Assembly (NCBI GenBank): GCA_013239625.1
Contig: MU053304.1
Coordinates: 1,984,001 to 2,048,000, forward strand
DNA length: 64,000 nucleotides
Reading direction: 5' to 3'
Origin: Lama guanicoe
Lineage: Eukaryota
A program made the translations under genes and the position numbers. A model generated the notes under the pieces. The model saw only the letters and a list, made by a program, of their open reading frames with translations. It made no database searches and had not been told where the DNA came from. Shown in pieces: positions 7,320-56,972 of this stretch; the stretch's first letter is position 1, and each line of letters opens with the position of its first letter.

Positions 7320-7433
7320 GTTATACTGGAGAGCTCTGCCAATCCAAGATTGACTACTGTATCCTAGACCCATGCAGAAACGGAGCAACATGCATTTCTA
7401 ATCTCAGCGGATTCACCTGCCAGTGTCCTGAAG
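7320..7433 (+). CDS. DNER: DNER internal coding exon (probably exon 7), EGF-like repeat; (G)YTGELCQSKIDYCILDPCRNGATCISNLSGFTCQCPE(G)
   Basis: Acceptor ttgttttattcAG ends at 7319; donor GAAG|GTAAAT starts at 7434; 114 nt, phase 1-1; EGF cysteine spacing. Not shown in the ORF track. Confidence 0.96.
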
Positions 7434-9334
7434 GTAAATATTATTACCCCAGGAATAACTTCCATTTTAAATCATAATCTAATTTGATGAGCTTTGTACT
7501 TCAATTATCTGAAAAACTCTACTCAAGAGAACTTCTTATTTTGTTCCATTTATAAAACCAAATATAAGATGGTCCTTTTTTAAGCTCTGTGCTAGAATAG
7601 CTTGGAAATTATGTCTATTAGGCATAATCAGAAATTTCTGTGATTTTCACTTATATATTGAAAACGAATAACTGTAATAAAATGGAATTTTTTTCTAATG
7701 GTGAATTTCACTTGTTAGGATTCCTATTTTTTTAATTATGCATTTGGTTTTTGATACCAGTTTACATTAAAAAATTTTTCAACATAAAATTCACCTGCTT
7801 TTATTTTTAAATTACTTTTGTAACATCTTTGAGACTTCCAGTCACCTGGAAAGCTACGTCTTTAGAGCTACTTTTATTTTTAAAAAGAGTCTTACTGTTC
7901 AAATAGTTTCATCTGAAGAAGCAGGCAGATAATCACAGCTATGGAGCTGGCGTTCAAAGAATAATTTTGTATTTGGAGGAAGCTTTGTTCCCATTTGTTC
8001 TTGGAGGGACGTTGTGGAAGAGATTACTTTAAACCTTTAATACTGTAAGAATAATACGATATTAAAACCAGCACATGTGCCCCTGATCCACGGAAGTGAC
8101 ACTGACAACCACACAGAGTAGCATGACACCCTCTGCAGAGATGAAGTGTGCAGTCGGGTGTGGAAGGAAGCATCTCTGTACTCAGAATTACCTAAACTGC
8201 CCCTCCCCAGCTGAGAGGCTGGCGGCAACCAGGGATGGGTGATGGTAAAAGGCCACTGACCTCCCAGGTAACCCAAGCTGCCGTCGGCAGTGCCTCGTCC
8301 TCATATTTGGAAGCCTGAGCAGCGACTAAAGAGGTGGCTTCCGTGTCCTGGCTTCTCGCCTGGGCAGGGAGGGGCAGGAGTGGGTGGCTGTGGCTGTGGT
8401 TATCCCCTCAGCTGGGTGTGCTTGTGAGGCACGTGGTTACCATGACGATGGTGTTATATGCGCTGGATGATCTTCGCTTGGGAAACAAATGGGAAAACTG
8501 GAAACACTGGCAGGTGGATGATCGATCCAGCAACAGCCATCACTTTCTGCGTACAGAGCACGTGACAGTCTCTCGCAGCTTTGCCGCACCCTGGCTTAGT
8601 CAGTTGCCACCTAACTTTGAGTCTAGGCTGTGCTTACAGTCAGGGGCAGGCTTCGTGGTCATCTGCTGATTGACTGTTGGTGAATCATTAATTCCCTTCC
8701 CCAACCCAGTCCTCCTTTTCCTTTTCTACTGAATGTGAGTGATGGTGCCCTGGGTTCCTCGCAGGGCCATTCTGGGATCGAATGGGAGTTTGGGGAAAGA
8801 TCTTTGAAAACTCCGGAGTGCTTTATTAGCATGATTTTGATTGCTACCAGAAAGTTAAATGTGGCCCCAGAGGCTCTGAGAGGTCGCGACTTACACAAAA
8901 TCACACTGGTGGTAAAAGGTGGCCCTTGAACGAGAGCCCAGAAGTTTTGTTTTCACTTACACTCCATTTTTCTAGTTAATAAAGATTTGCCAAGCATGGG
9001 CTGGGTGCGAGGCTGCAGGGTCAGCAAAGCTGAGATGGCCCCTCCTGTGATACGGACACAAGTAAGTCTGCAGTGACAAGCAGGAACAGGTGCCTTGAAG
9101 ACGTATGACAAGGATCTGCTTAGCCTTGGGGACCTGGGGGAGATGCCCATGTACAGAGACCCTGAGTGAGGAGAGGGAGGAGGAAGGCGAAGATGAGGGC
9201 GTCACCGAGGAGCAAAGGGAGCGGGGAAGAAGGCGGGCGGCCAGGGCTGAGTCCTCAGGGCTTCACGGGGCTTTGTGGGCAGGGGTGGGGCATGTCCTCT
9301 TCATCCCGGGGGCCGCGGAGAGGGCAGAGGCTGG

Positions 9335-9556
9335 GGTTCCGAGCCTGTTCTGCCTCTCGCTTACCAGCTCTGTCCCATGGGCAAGTGAGTTCACACTTCT
9401 CTGTGCCTCAGTTTTTTACCTGGTAAAATTGGGGCGATGATAACCGCCACTTCCTAGGGTCCATGCGACTCAATGAAATGAGAAGCTGCTTAGATAAAGT
9501 GCTTAGCACGGTGCCTGGCTAAGTGCTCAGGGAATATTAGCCACCTTATCATTATT
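9335..9556 (+). mobile_element. MIR SINE
   Basis: MIR core ctctgtgcctcagttttttacctggtaaaattgggg and 3' part aaagtgcttagcacggtgcctggc. Confidence 0.8.
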
Positions 9557-10974
9557 GTTTTCCTGGTATTGATTATTATGAAACCATTGATACATTTAAA
9601 CAGGCATTTGTAATCTTCATTCCGGAGCAGCGTGGAAAGTAGTTGGGAGAGAGACGAGAGTGGGAAAAAGGAGGGAGGCCTGGGGGACTGCGGTAGAAGT
9701 CTGGGAAACAGACATTGACTGCTAGGGAGAGAAGGCAGAATTTGAAAAGGAGAGAAGCTGCTGGATTTGGGAGAACTTGAGAGGGAAAACAGAGGGGCCT
9801 GGGGATGGCTGGGGGTGGGTGAGGGAGAGCCAGCTCAGGGCTTCTGTTACTTTATGGTTGGTTGTGCCATTCGTGGAGAAAAAGCTATGTGGAGGAGAAG
9901 GGTTCTGTTTTGGACCTGTTGAGTGTGACGTTCAATTGGAGACAGCGGCTGGGCAGTTGCTATGAGTCTGGAAGTGACTGCGGACGTTCGGGCCAAGTCT
10001 GTGCACAGAGACGCTGGTCTATAGATTGTCATTTAAACCTGGGTATCAGTGGGGTTGTCTGGGGACCTTCTCCTTTATCCAGTAGCCCGTCAGTTCCTGC
10101 GTGTTGTCTAGACAAAGCCTCGAGAAAATGTGACCATCTGGAATGCAAAGGATGGAGATGGATTTCCCAGCAAGTCTTTGTATGAAGACTTTCATTCGGA
10201 GGCGTCCCTTTACTGAAGACTGACCAGGGAAGGACGCTTCAGTTATAATTCTGAGGGTGTCCTTGCAATGTTTCGAAGCCTCTTAGCAGCCAGCGTTTTT
10301 AAAGCAGCCCCTCCCACTGACCTGTTCTTCGGGTGCTTGTTGTAGAGGCTAATATTTATAGGGCACCTGGCACTTACAGAAAAGCCTGTGTCTCCGAGAG
10401 CCCGCTGATATCAGCCGCGCTGTAGAAACAAGTTTGAAAGTGGTTCAAGTCCACACTACGTTCCAGAATTCTCAGCCAGCCCTTGATCCCTGCCCACCTC
10501 CTTTTCTTTCTATTTTTTTTCCTCCAGAGATTTACATTTTGGCATGTTTGCTTTATATGTATGTATTTACATATATAGTTTGGTTTTTGGCAAACTGACT
10601 TGAGGGTCAGTTACAGATGTCACGACCTTCATCCCCAAATAAATCAGTTAGCGTTTCTGAGAGTAAGGACATTCTCCTTGGCATCTACGTTACCATTCCC
10701 ACACCTAAGAAAGTTAGTAATTATTTCCTAGTATTATTTGCTACCTGCTCCCTTTTCATGGGCGCCTTTGCATGTTTGGGCTGATTCCGTCAGCCCTTCC
10801 CTGTTACATCCTTCGGGGGCGGGAAATGTAGCTTATTCACCTCTCTGTCACCGACTCCCAATACCTCATCACAGGGCTTTCAGTTCCATATTTTACGTTA
10901 GTAGGAGGTTAATAAATATTTGTTAAATAAATTAATTATATAAGTCAACACTTAGATATCACTCACTGGGTTTA

Positions 10975-24020: not shown

Positions 24021-24669
24021 ATTCCTTTTTGTGGCCAAATAGTATCCCATTGAGCGGATACATCACAGTTTGTTTTCGCATTACAATAACCAATTTTTTT
24101 TAAGTATATATTCAAAAAACTGCTAACAGTAGGTATGTCATTTTTTAAATTTAATTCAATTAATTAATTTATTTTTATTTTTTGGGTAAACAAAGTTTAT
24201 TCTAGGTGCTTCTTGAGAAGGGAGTGAGGGACAGAGGGACAAAGGTGGGAGAAAGATGTTTTCATTGTTTACTATTTTGTGTGGGTTTTCGGTTTTAATT
24301 CAGGATTGCATCTTTTCTCTATTAAAGCAAAGTGAGGCATGTCTTCCTCCAGCAATGTGTATTAAATAAGAGGTCAAACTCCCTCCACGGACCCCAGTCC
24401 CACCTTCAGATTAATTTGTTTTTGGCATTTTCAAGTCTCTAGAGGCACATCTACACATGTATCCATTTAAATATATTTATCCCCTGTCCGTCTGTACATC
24501 TGAGCAATCATATATTTTGCATTTCAACAGAAATAGCAGCACAGGGCGTCATCATTTAACCCCAGTTACCAAAGCCAAGAAAACCCACACCTAGTCGGGT
24601 TGTGCCTACGTGGAAACAATTCCGGAATGAATCCTAATTCGTTGATCCAGTCACGTTGGAAAAGAGATA

Positions 24670-25005
24670 AGCACAGCGGCCCCAGGTCCTTGGGCGTTAC
24701 GCGTCGCACGGCTAAATTTCTGTACCCCCGCGTCCTCCCGCAGGGTACCTGGGCGCGGCCTGCGACGAGAGGGCGGACCCGTGCGCCTCGGCGCCCTGCC
24801 GCAACAACGGGACGTGCTACGCGGACGGGCCGCACTTCGGCTGCAGCTGCGGCGCGGGCTTCACCGGGCCGGCCTGCGCGCAGCTCGTCGACTTCTGCGC
24901 GCTCAGCCCCTGCGCCCACGGCTCGTGCCGCAGCGTGGGCACCAGCTACAAGTGCCTCTGTGACCCAGGTTGGTACCATCCCCGGCCCGAGAGCCCCGTC
25001 TGGCC
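24670..25005. promoter_or_regulatory. Small intragenic CpG island / GC peak centred on the 225-nt exon
   Basis: About 33 CpG counted in the 225-nt exon, and more in the flanks (gcgttacgcgtcgcacgg), against AT-rich, CpG-poor intron on both sides. Confidence 0.8.
24744..24968 (+). CDS. DNER: DNER internal coding exon (probably exon 8), two EGF-like repeats; (G)[74 protein letters not shown](G)
   Basis: Acceptor cgtcctcccgcAG ends at 24743; donor CCAG|GTTGGT starts at 24969; 225 nt, phase 1-1, open frame, 12 Cys in EGF spacing. Confidence 0.96.
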
Positions 25006-25294
25006 CCAGCCTCAGAGCCTTTCAGCTTTGCCTTTGCGTCTGAGCACAGGTTGGCCCGCTGAATGTGCTGGCTTGACCAGGGGAACTCCACCCCTTTTAA
25101 CAGACACCCTTCCTCTTGAGGCTTCCTCTAGGCAGGCTTGGAAACGCACCCTCTCCCCTTTGCCTGAGCCGTTCACAGTCATTGTAGAAAAATAGGAAAA
25201 TGCATGTAAGCAAAATGAAGAAAATTGAAGACAGGCTTGATCTCGTAACAGCCTAATTATTTAAAGAAAATTTTTAAACAGTGTCTTTTATTTG

Positions 25295-31995: not shown

Positions 31996-34900
31996 TCCGT
32001 TCTGCTTTGATTCTTGTTTGAGGGGTGTTCAGGGAGAATTTGTGGTGTTTGGCTTCTCAGGCTAGTGCCTGGGGGGATTAATATGGGGGCGGGAAGGACA
32101 GTGGTCACGAGTGAAGGGCACTTGCTGGTGTGGTTTATGGAATTTTGATGAGATTCTTGACATTAAAAATCTATTCACAGTCTATTTAACCTCACACTAA
32201 ATGGCTAATCCATATGTATGAAGGTGTTAATGAACTGGCCTTTAATTATGAGCAATTTCTGCTCCCTCTGCTCCCACAGCTCCCCTTAACATTCACATCA
32301 TCCAGAATTCGTTCTTTACTGCACTACTGTTGAAAGGAATGGGATTTACCTACGAGGGTAGGCACTGGATGGTCTGCGAGGACAGCAGGAATCGTTTTAT
32401 CCTGTCTTAACTGGAATGAAAGTCAGAAGTGGCAGCTGATGACAGTAGCCAGTGCATTTCTGAGGATGGCTCTGTTTGGAGCACTGCCAACTCTATAATC
32501 TCAGGAAATTCTCCTCCGCTATGGAAGTCAGATGGCGACTCATTTAAAACTGGTCTGTAACGAAGCCATTGACTCTTGCTTTGTGATTGGAAGTTACTAT
32601 GATCTGATCACTAGCGTGTTTTGGCTTGCGGAGGTCTGGGAATTGGCAATTGAGAACTGAAATTTAACATGCCTTTCCTCTCACCAGGTGTGATGCAAAG
32701 GGCTCTGGGCTTAGAATTGAGTAGAGCCGAACTGCAGTGACAGCTTTATCACTGACCAGCTGTTCCATTGGCCTCTGTTAGCCTTAGTTTCTTCTTCTTT
32801 AAAATGGGGGCAAACATACGAAGCTCAAATGAGATGATGCCAATGATGGACCAGCAGTGTGCTAAGGGTGCCAACATCAGATCCTCCTTGTCATGGGGAA
32901 GACTGTTAAGGAAACTATTAAATCTGTGCTCTGATTCTTTTCATGTGAGGCTCAAGGTTGGAGTCGGACTAGAGGTGGAATCAATTTTCGTGGCCATAGT
33001 GGCCATTCTTGAGTGATGGGTCAGGGCCAGCTTTGTGTGGGATTAGGGGACTGGCTCTTTGTGACTTCAGTGGTAAAGACTGCAACGCAGGGGCTGGGCA
33101 GAGCTCTTTGACTGCAGTGTCTCCTTGAATCCCCACTGGCCCCGTGAAGTGGGACCCACGCTTGCTGCCCTTTCCCGGCCCATGACTGTCGAGCTAGTTA
33201 GGGATGAAGCTGGGATTGACATCAGGGGCTCTGTTATCTCAGAGTAAACCGGAAACAGGGTCAAACTGTGACCCTGACTCACCGGCGGTCAATAACTGTC
33301 TCAAAAATGAAACATTAAGCCAGATTTTCTAAGTGGTGGTTGTCTTCACGGCTTCCTCCCATGAGCACATTAAATAGGTGTTTGTCCAGACATTGATGCA
33401 GCTCTGCTGACCCAGGTGAGGCATCTGGGTCCATGCTAGCTTTGCCTCCAGTAGTTTCCATCTATGAGAGCTTAACTACACTGAGACTCTGCTGAACACT
33501 GGACAAATGTTTTCTCTTACTGAGCCCCAGCTGACAGTATTCCCATCCTTTTATTTGAGGACGAGGACACTGAGGCATTGAGAGTCTAAACAGCAAGTAG
33601 AAGTGAATGAGCCCCAGGTTTAACCTAGATTTGCCCAACACCAGTCCCTGACCAATAGGCTAGACTTGGCAGAAGCCTAATCGGGCCCCCAAGTTACGTG
33701 TGGACATGGGCACTCACTCACGCGGGGTCCAGTCACAAGAACGGGCTTCGAGACCACCCTCATCTCAGCACAGCTCTGAGATGTGTCTCTGAGAGGACAC
33801 CTCAAAGCCACGCTTGAGAAGTGGCCTTGACTGTGGTCCAGCGAGTGACTTTTAACCAATGGTTTCTGACCTCCCGGCACAGAGAGGCACAACTTCGACC
33901 TCCCAGGAAGCTGAGCTGCTTGCAGGTGGGTGCACCTCTTCTGCTTTGGTTTCGCGGCAGATTCAGTGGCTTCAGAACTGGTGCTGAGGGCTACCTGGGG
34001 CTGACACTTGTGCTTTCATTTGACCTGATGTCTGCTGGATGCGCCGAATTCGAGAAACTGCTGTTCTTATGACTCAAATGGAAATGCAGGCATAACCACG
34101 TGACAGTTACGTCACCCTTCATCTTAGATAGTCTCTTGATGGATGCTTCTCACTTATGGGGCCCCCAGTGCTAGTCGCTATTGGACTTCTTTTCTTACCA
34201 CCCAAATCTCTGAAGCCTCCTGTGCTGATTACTCCATGCACGGATGCCTTTGATGCTGTTTCTGTTCACCTGGCCCTGGTAATACCCTTGATGTAATCCT
34301 TCCTATTCATATTTGACTTTTTGGTTTCTTGGCTCTCTGCCTCAAGCCAGCTCTGATGTCCAACGCTTTCCGTATCCCTCCTTCCCACAAGCCTGCCTCA
34401 GTGGCAGTGGTTTGCCATCCGTGTCAATGATGGAGCATGTACTGGGCCTCAGAAACCCAGGATTGGAAGGCCTATGACAATGTGCTGTCACAGGTGATGT
34501 CTGGGATATATTGTGACTGATGGCCTGCATCCTGAATCCCAACTGGACAGCCAATAAGGAGATTTGTCTGCATGTTTTACTTTGTTCCCTAGCCTTCTAG
34601 CCTTCAGTGTGCTTTCAAATTCTTCCTTGATACAGATTTGTATAAAAATCTGGGTACGATGCCCTGCATTTCTTCCATTGTTTTTCACTACAGCTGTGGA
34701 TTTTCCGTTTGAAAGTACACAATGAAAGTTGCTGCATGGACTGAGTGCTTTTATAAAATTGCTTCAGTGTTGATGACGACTCAGAGCTCCTAAGCCTGCC
34801 AGAAGCTGATTGATACATGACCTCTTTGTTATTCCGGTACATGGTCAGCTCAAAGCACTTACCGGTTTTTCAGAACAGCACGTCCTCCCCAGGTCACCCA

Positions 34901-47587: not shown

Positions 47588-47710
47588 GCTACCATGGCCT
47601 CTACTGCGAGGAGGAATACAACGAGTGCCTCTCCGCCCCGTGCCTGAACGCTGCCACCTGCAGGGACCTCGTCAATGGCTACGAGTGCGTGTGCCTGGCG
47701 GAGTACAAAG
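47588..47710 (+). CDS. DNER: DNER internal coding exon (probably exon 9), calcium-binding-type EGF repeat; (G)YHGLYCEEEYNECLSAPCLNAATCRDLVNGYECVCLAEYK(G)
   Basis: Acceptor ctctgtccctcAG ends at 47587; donor AAAG|GTGAGC starts at 47711; 123 nt, phase 1-1; contains NEC and the C-x-D-x4-Y-x-C hydroxylation motif. Confidence 0.97.
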
Positions 47711-56858: not shown

Positions 56859-56972
56859 GAATCCACTGTGAAGCCTACAAGGACCCCTGCGCTAACGTCA
56901 GCTGTCTGAACGGAGGCACGTGTGACAGTGACGGCCTCAATGGCACGTGTGTCTGCACACCAGGATTTACAG
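56859..56972 (+). CDS. DNER: DNER internal coding exon (probably exon 10), EGF-like repeat; (G)IHCEAYKDPCANVSCLNGGTCDSDGLNGTCVCTPGFT(G)
   Basis: Acceptor gtttcttggcAG ends at 56858; 114 nt, phase 1-1; the exon ends at ACAG|GCAAGT, a GC donor. Confidence 0.94.

Follow-up and report, generated by a model that had tools for sequence, protein, structure and literature searches.

A G/C-saturated EGF-repeat exon of DNER in a camelid: old, shared composition and a possible long-lasting bias in fixation

How does one exon of a conserved gene come to end nearly all of its codons in G or C, and do the unusual amino acids that it encodes have the same origin? The question is raised by a 64,000-nucleotide stretch of the genome of Lama guanicoe (the window; contig MU053304.1 of assembly GCA_013239625.1, positions 1,984,001 to 2,048,000 of the forward strand), which carries part of DNER, the delta and Notch-like EGF-related receptor, a conserved neuronal Notch-pathway protein. 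A preliminary description held that the DNER exon at 24744-24968 had been rewritten by a local burst of substitutions, with GC-biased gene conversion (gBGC) at a recombination hotspot fixing amino-acid changes. Comparison with other mammals points to a different history: the reading that we prefer, and to which as a whole we give a probability of about 55%, is that of an old CpG-island exon held at saturation by a long-lasting G/C-favouring bias, probably gBGC.

Identity and composition of the exon

Orthology, domain content and conserved cysteines all identify 24744-24968 as an EGF-like repeat exon of DNER. It lies between an acceptor AG (24742-24743) and a donor GT (24969-24970), starts with the last two nucleotides of a glycine codon, continues through 74 complete codons and ends with the first nucleotide of another glycine codon. 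The encoded protein consists of the end of one EGF repeat, a complete repeat and a part of the following one that has five of its six cysteines. Both boundaries are fixed by antisense open reading frames (ORFs) from spliced transcripts of other species (P0156, P0159, P0163 and P0164), which read straight across this exon from the following one to the preceding one. The 74-residue translation gave 119 matches at E <= 0.001 among 128 candidates in the protein database; nearly all of the named ones are vertebrate DNER, the single exception being a carp Notch1, and the top match is Camelus bactrianus at 93% protein identity. A Camelus DNER protein (P0009) is identical at 71 of 76 residues by tblastn, the Pfam EGF family (PF00008) scores 32.1 bits where 21.5 is the cut-off, and all cysteines are aligned in gap-free rows (36 + 22 orthologue rows, two unnamed rows being gapped). 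The DNER exons all lie on one contig, and in order, in a host assembly of 2.05 Gb and 55,231 contigs.

What is unusual is the composition. G or C occupies the third position (GC3) of 72 of the 74 complete codons, with a TGT and a CCA as the exceptions, and there are 33 CpG dinucleotides, exactly as the preliminary description had counted; GC content is 74.7% and the observed-to-expected CpG ratio (o/e) 1.05. At the pooled rate of the other 11 measured DNER exons (408/640), the chance of at least 72 in 74 would be 3e-12, and the CpG density of the rest of the window leads one to expect 3.3 CpG per 225 nt, against which 33 or more has P = 7e-22. For the preceding exon, earlier put at 18 of 37 G/C-ending codons and 2 CpG, a recount gave 18 of the 39 codons read and again 2 CpG.

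The intron immediately upstream belongs to the same compositional feature. The 200 nt at 24544-24743 have a GC content of 0.54, 15 CpG and an o/e of 1.06, and the combined span of 425 nt (24544-24968) has a GC content of 0.647, 48 CpG and an o/e of 1.08, which makes it a CpG island by the usual sequence definition of at least 200 nt, at least 50% GC and an o/e of at least 0.6. Since o/e is 1.08 over exon and upstream flank together, there is no CpG depletion of the methylation type, and a ratio so near 1 suggests that the island is probably unmethylated in the germline. The 200 nt downstream (24969-25168) have a GC content of 0.60 and 6 CpG (o/e 0.34). The intron is thus AT-rich, as had been described, farther than 200 nt from the exon, where its G/C content drops to 0.36-0.40, but not within that distance.

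Silent composition across orthologues

Orthologous DNA was recovered by an indirect route. Because this G/C-rich exon is open in other frames, gene callers working on short public contigs sometimes report those frames, and the translations of such other-frame or antisense ORFs, combined with the known DNER residues, allow the nucleotides to be decoded; the third position of a true codon falls on the middle base in the alternative plus-strand frame and on the first base in the antisense frame. The search with the alternative plus-strand frame yielded P0143, P0144, P0145, P0165 and P0166, and that with the codon-aligned antisense frame 19 proteins. As controls, the window exon returned itself apart from two ambiguity codes, and P0143/P0146 and P0144/P0150, each pair being one species read in both frames, agreed without a conflicting position. 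With P0147 left out as a near-duplicate of P0159 (1 difference), the sample comprises 21 orthologues: five ruminants, one dolphin-like, one horse-like, two mustelids, six bats of three kinds, one mole-like, two rodents, two simian-like and P0161 (Table 1).

Table 1. Third-position G/C and CpG counts of the exon in the window and in decoded orthologues
Source	GC3	CpG	DNA
Window	72/74	33	
Five ruminants	61-65/74	17-18	decoded
P0161, unplaced laurasiatherian	>=69/74	21	decoded
Six bats	57-64/74 (one 46/58)	11-21	decoded
Two mustelids	58/74	15, 18	decoded
Horse-like	55/74 + 9 ambiguous	15	decoded
Mole-like	57/74	13	decoded
Two rodents	55, 48/74	13, 9	decoded
Two simians	48/72, 32/46	8, 5	decoded

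All 21 of these boreoeutherian orthologues have a G/C majority at third positions, at roughly 65-93% or more. When site patterns are read without an inferred ancestor, every one of the 72 G/C third positions of the window recurs in some other lineage group, 48 of them in 10 or all of the 11 groups. Of its 33 CpGs, 27 recur in one or more of these groups, and the six that are private to the window were made by the replacements E8D, V11A, Q20R, L30P and S37G and by one synonymous ACC-to-ACG change. Since no G/C third position is private and 27 CpGs are shared, the silent-site richness was inherited, and since P0161 has a GC3 of at least 69/74, near-saturation is not unique to the window lineage. 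The idea that the exon was rewritten by a local burst fails on these shared patterns. The preliminary description had itself named as adverse the finding of orthologous exons equally GC-rich with the same residues in most mammals, and the half of that expectation that concerns composition is what the decoded exons bear out.

The direction of the differences is strongly one-sided. In pairwise comparison the window has a strong base (G or C) where the other sequence has a weak one (A or T) at 7-35 sites per orthologue, and the reverse at 0-3; the reverse count is zero for the five ruminants, the dolphin-like and horse-like sequences, both rodents and both simians. In most orthologues, CpG in one sequence against TpG or CpA in the other accounts for around half of these pairwise differences or more. 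A bird exon (L001, with 97% protein identity to duck, sparrow and pigeon) has a GC content of 47%, a GC3 of 28/74 and 4 CpG.

P0161 comes from a Logan contig on which the flanks of the exon are also GC-rich. The bird exon lies, with introns, on an 11.5-kb metagenome contig (Ga0181612_143155), which is therefore host or environmental bird DNA, and was the only DNER orthologue among the 78 loci kept from the metagenome scan; the remaining loci were rejected as orthologues, their EGF repeats being just 35-47% identical to the query. A scan of prokaryote genome contigs gave five loci, all of them unrelated EGF-like repeats in metagenome-assembled genomes. These five (L091-L095, labelled Bdellovibrionales, Myxococcales and Metamycoplasmataceae) are 37-50% identical to the DNER exon and could be true bacterial EGF-like proteins or eukaryotic contamination.

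Amino-acid replacements and their place on the tree

The protein alignment of the exon combines 36 of the 119 matches with 22 further cluster members, and residues are numbered along a 76-residue string in which both split glycines are counted. The preliminary description had put the differences from human at about 16 of 75 residues, against about 1 of 38 and 0 of 41 in the flanking exons. With three simian DNER proteins standing in for human, the counts are nearly the same: 15-16/74 here, 1-3/39 in the preceding exon and 0/42 (0/37 in Rhinopithecus) in the following one, and the N that the preliminary description had for human at position 35 is compatible with the decoded simian-like P0166. 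By place on the tree, about eight of the differences trace to the camelids and about three (F3L, S17A and T33G) to the stem of the cetartiodactyls; the rest arose elsewhere.

Four residues are found in the window only: E8D and K10R, where D and R occur in no other aligned sequence; S37G, where G occurs in no other aligned mammal although the gar has it; and A at residue 5, where the alignment shows S, A, P and T. The window and Camelus alone share V11A, Q20R, P30 (L or V elsewhere) and T61S, while F3L, S17A (in ruminants) and T33G are common to other cetartiodactyls. A27, A38, A44, V49 and S35 are widespread in Laurasiatheria or beyond, or reflect a change on the primate side, and are not changes of the window lineage. 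Set against decoded ruminant codons, T61S is an A>T and E8D a G>C change; the others are A>G, T>C, A>G with G>C, T>C and A>G. The replacements lie in the loops and linker of the EGF repeats, and every cysteine is kept. Camelus has states of its own (H31R and P5), its two accessions being identical to each other in this exon. These run in the same direction, which suggests that the G/C-ward bias continues inside the camelids, on both branches. Divergence from Camelus is also faster here than elsewhere in the protein: 5/76 residues differ in this exon, against 5/472 in the other exons from residue 209 onward (Fisher p = 0.006).

Substitutions were mapped by parsimony on the accepted mammal tree, and the branch counts rest on parsimony and site patterns. 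The window branch carries five weak-to-strong, no strong-to-weak, one weak-to-weak and three strong-to-strong changes, and all five weak-to-strong changes fall at codon positions 1-2 and alter the amino acid. The cetartiodactyl stem has three weak-to-strong and no strong-to-weak changes and the stem below it two and none, whereas all other branches together have 23 and 64 (11 and 53 at third positions); the window branch differs from the other branches at Fisher p = 0.002, or 0.006 with P0161 in the tree. The earlier remark that most changes lead to GC-richer codons is thus upheld for the replacements on this branch. No synonymous weak-to-strong change is found among its nine unambiguous changes, and at most three are possible at ambiguous sites. 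Inferred GC3 is 69-72/74 for the cetartiodactyl ancestor, 61-66 for the laurasiatherian and 53-66 for the boreoeutherian one, and on this mapping the cetartiodactyl ancestor already had 23, possibly 27, of the window CpGs. Along comparable paths, sister lineages have undergone about 4-9 strong-to-weak changes; with 4-5 expected, the chance of seeing none is about 0.007-0.018.

The flanks could be compared with one ruminant each, ruminant 2 upstream and ruminant 1 downstream. Over the last 45 nt upstream of the exon the window has G/C where the ruminant has A/T at 8 sites and the reverse holds at 1, a count on which three frames agree but which is unpolarised. Flank decoding is partial: the first codon position is unrecovered in the alternative plus-strand and antisense frames alike; an in-frame read-through (P0102) conflicts with ruminant 1 at -19 and agrees with ruminant 2 only between -51 and +17 relative to the exon; and the flank ORF pairs conflict beyond +164 in ruminant 1 and beyond +17 in ruminant 2. 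By site class, a comparison that had been proposed as a check, there is a weak-to-strong excess at nonsynonymous sites (5 to 0) and none at synonymous sites, and the unpolarised intron counts are 8 to 1 upstream and 7 to 5 downstream. Some 150-250 nt downstream of the exon, the ruminant orthologues P0146, P0148 and P0150 carry a TG microsatellite and a stretch resembling a ruminant short interspersed element; a repeat search found neither at the corresponding place in the window.

What may hold the exon at saturation

If the long-lasting bias that we prefer is right, this is an ordinary, expressed DNER EGF exon inside a small intragenic CpG island (about 24544-24968), whose near-saturated silent G/C and most of whose CpGs would predate the divergence of the sampled boreoeutherians and are absent in the bird. 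Most mammal lineages would since have been losing G/C, largely through the decay of CpG to TpG or CpA, while the window lineage would have lost none and would have gained G/C-ward replacements in the EGF loops and linker. The agent would most probably have been gBGC at a recombination-prone and probably germline-unmethylated CpG island, along the whole path to the camelids, and this conversion bias would have been active still after the split from Camelus. We infer a fixation bias because an unmethylated germline explains the retention of CpGs but neither the 97% G/C at silent sites nor the complete lack of strong-to-weak change, and gBGC at a recombination-prone island would be its simplest candidate. 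What appears specific to the lineage is the zero decay, the one-sided G/C-ward replacements in both camelid branches and the G/C-richer upstream flank. That gBGC fixed amino-acid changes here, as the preliminary description had proposed, accords with the one-sided replacements; its being a local episode of one lineage does not accord with silent G/C that is old and shared.

Several points weigh against this account. Thirteen of the 72 G/C third positions are G/C in just 3-6 of the 11 other groups, which leaves their polarity uncertain. The orthologues were decoded from ENA and Logan contigs with 1-14 ambiguous bases each and take their taxon labels from the best-matching named protein; moreover, decodable ORFs need stop-free frames, so that G/C-rich orthologues are favoured and AT-rich ones missed, as the bird exon illustrates with a TTA codon that is a stop in the antisense frame. 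The mammals sampled as DNA are all boreoeutherian, and Camelus was compared as protein. The inferred cetartiodactyl ancestor had just 2-5 weak third positions left, so few that the lack of synonymous weak-to-strong changes tells neither for nor against gBGC. Parsimony applied to G/C-biased sequence reportedly overcounts changes from common to rare bases, a point attributed to Eyre-Walker in 1998. About 130 nt of downstream flank compared with ruminant 1 show no clear asymmetry (7 window-strong and 5 ruminant-strong sites, with 40 ambiguous, and unpolarised). Finally, three other DNER exons have a GC3 of 0.82-0.89, two of them outside the window and flanked by AT-rich sequence, a hint that the cause may lie at the level of the exon and not in conversion tracts.

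Could a gBGC burst restricted to the camelid lineage, at a recombination hotspot, have rewritten silent sites, CpGs and residues together? The window branch, with its five weak-to-strong changes and no strong-to-weak ones, is what such a burst would leave, as are the six private CpGs, five of them made by replacements, the excess of differences from Camelus (5/76 against 5/472) and the upstream intron that is G/C-richer than the ruminant one by 8 sites to 1. Yet the window has no third-position G/C of its own, its branch lacks any unambiguous synonymous weak-to-strong change (at most three at ambiguous sites), the ruminant, dolphin-like, horse-like, mustelid, bat, mole-like, rodent and simian orthologues already stand at a GC3 of about 65-93%, and other parts of the tree account for about half of the differences from human. 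These patterns largely refute the burst where silent sites are concerned; we regard it as improbable overall, and a single recent burst as less likely than a long-lasting bias. When a species is set against human and nothing else, inherited composition and human-side changes take on the look of a local burst. An artefact of assembly or sequencing in a hard, GC-rich stretch is far less probable still: the best run contains 0.92 rather than 1.0 of the 31-mers sampled from 24444-25243, but because 83-92% of them are present in each of 14 DNA runs, which represent five organisms and several studies (k-mer containment), an assembly artefact is unlikely, and the reading frame is intact, the cysteines are conserved and the exon keeps its 93% protein identity to that of Camelus.

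Two further explanations dispense with conversion. The island may be functional, as an alternative promoter, enhancer or Polycomb target that is unmethylated and under selection at the level of DNA, the replacements then being tolerated by-products of keeping or adding CpGs. The o/e of 1.08 over 425 nt, the asymmetric extent over exon and upstream flank only, the wide sharing of CpGs among mammals, and the making of five of the six private CpGs by replacements and of the other by a synonymous C>G change that gBGC would not favour all fit this idea. A lack of methylation, however, halts CpG decay without pushing silent sites to 97% G/C, and it leaves unexplained why a long branch has no strong-to-weak change outside CpG when sister lineages show 4-9; we think this explanation unlikely, if less so than the burst. 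Adaptive or relaxed evolution of one DNER EGF repeat in camelids, independent of base composition, seems to us about as improbable as the burst. The replacements do cluster in the first 44 residues, a stretch that is variable also in Pteropus, Jaculus and Ailuropoda, with all cysteines kept and the Pfam EGF match retained. But a count of five weak-to-strong and no strong-to-weak changes arose in a sequence of 75% G/C, where mutation offers far more strong-to-weak chances, and selection on the protein does not predict such one-sidedness, which the Camelus-only H31R and P5 repeat. Selection on the island and selection or relaxation on the protein explain the direction of change less well than a fixation bias does.

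A stronger form of the long-lasting bias is that a G/C-favouring hotspot on a coding CpG island was active for tens of millions of years toward the camelids and still is in both branches, keeping silent sites saturated while other sampled mammals mostly erode, and forcing G/C-ward, CpG-creating replacements into an EGF repeat of a conserved neuronal Notch ligand. We consider this form doubtful; if it held, the hotspot would be unusually long-lived by the standards of placental mammals, and nature would have provided a test of the conversion load that a conserved domain can bear. If the bias lasted along the whole camelid path, the locus would be useful for studying long-lived CpG-island hotspots in a placental mammal. 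G/C-ward replacements in one DNER exon would score as accelerated or positively selected in camelid scans, and their one-sidedness makes them more likely to be by-products of a fixation bias.

Comparison with known systems

The DNER exon is a new instance of a known phenomenon. Exon-specific and lineage-specific gBGC episodes are described as clusters of synonymous AT-to-GC substitutions on one branch that are short-lived (Riffis, Saclier and Galtier 2025, PMC12290510). The exon resembles such episodes in its single-exon scale and in A/T-to-G/C replacements in a conserved protein that could be mistaken for positive selection; it differs from them in showing no synonymous weak-to-strong change on the focal branch, in a GC3 that is old and shared, and in a bias spread over successive branches. 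The nonsynonymous weak-to-strong excess on the focal branch is present (5:0 against 23:64), but sister lineages free of enrichment are not what we find, as all 21 orthologues, from 48/74 to 69/74, are enriched. The defining synonymous cluster is missing partly because hardly any weak silent sites remained, and the bias at this exon looks long-lived rather than episodic.

Another parallel is Fxy/Mid1 of Mus musculus, whose 3' part moved into the pseudoautosomal region, a highly recombining one, with a recent rise of GC3 in that one lineage. There as here, part of a gene is near-saturated in GC3 and carries many G/C-ward residue changes while the rest is ordinary, but the richness of the DNER exon predates the boreoeutherian radiation, and we know of no comparable relocation of it. 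Dogs and birds are among the species without PRDM9, in which CpG islands serve as stable recombination hotspots with a runaway gain of G/C. The DNER island is similar in keeping or gaining G/C over tens of millions of years where erosion would be the alternative, and dissimilar in that its bird orthologue is GC-poor (28/74). Intragenic, or orphan, CpG islands are a known class, to which about 425 nt at a GC content of 0.65 and an o/e of 1.08 within a long AT-rich gene body would belong; unlike them, the DNER island coincides with coding sequence whose silent sites are saturated. A full-text literature search found nothing on DNER together with biased gene conversion and no mention of DNER among the papers listed on positive selection in camels, and the passages retrieved from the literature on PRDM9, alpaca, camel and gBGC contained nothing specific on camelid hotspots.

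Other DNER exons and further observations

The coordinates of the exon, its flanks and the other DNER exons in the window are given in Table 2. Among the latter, the preceding exon has no residue different from Camelus in 39, the following one is identical at 42/42 residues to Camelus, Callithrix, Cebus and Equus, and the next is identical to Camelus at 38/39. Two DNER exons outside the window are also rich in third-position G/C, with a GC3 of 46/56 (0.82) at L085:1507-1674 and 73/82 (0.89) at L081:1504-1749, and both have AT-rich flanks (GC about 0.39-0.44 within 200 nt). Since these two and the following exon at 47588-47710 are all GC3-rich, the exon at 24744-24968 is the extreme among several rather than a lone case. 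It alone among them unites high GC3, a CpG island and amino-acid change, the residues differing from Camelus being 0 at 47588-47710, 2 in the L085 exon and 1 in the L081 exon.

Table 2. Coordinates in the window of the DNER exons and of the intron flanks of the G/C-saturated exon
Feature	Position	Strand	Remarks
Preceding DNER EGF exon	7320..7433	+	GC3 18/39 codons read, 2 CpG
Upstream intron flank, polypyrimidine tract and acceptor AG included	24544..24743	+	one CpG island with the exon
DNER coding exon, EGF-like	24744..24968	+	225 nt; tblastn, Pfam, composition
Downstream intron flank, from donor GT	24969..25168	+	GC-rich, CpG-depleted
Following DNER EGF exon	47588..47710	+	GC3 37/43 codons read, 9 CpG
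Next DNER EGF exon	56859..56972	+	GC3 24/39, 6 CpG

The 3' boundary of the exon ending at 56972 has ACAG as its last exon bases and GCAAGT as the first intron bases, so that the intron appears to begin with GC, not GT, which suggests a non-canonical GC-AG intron. Other intronic GC peaks lie at 8001-10000 and 33001-34000 of the window, with 0.51-0.54 per 1-kb bin against 0.43 for the whole window. Outside the window, the alternative first exon of Camelus DNER isoform X1 (residues 1-107) was found at L080:1501-1821 (C593:1804558-1804887); with 10 of 107 residues different from Camelus, it is the fastest-diverging part of DNER between the two camelids.

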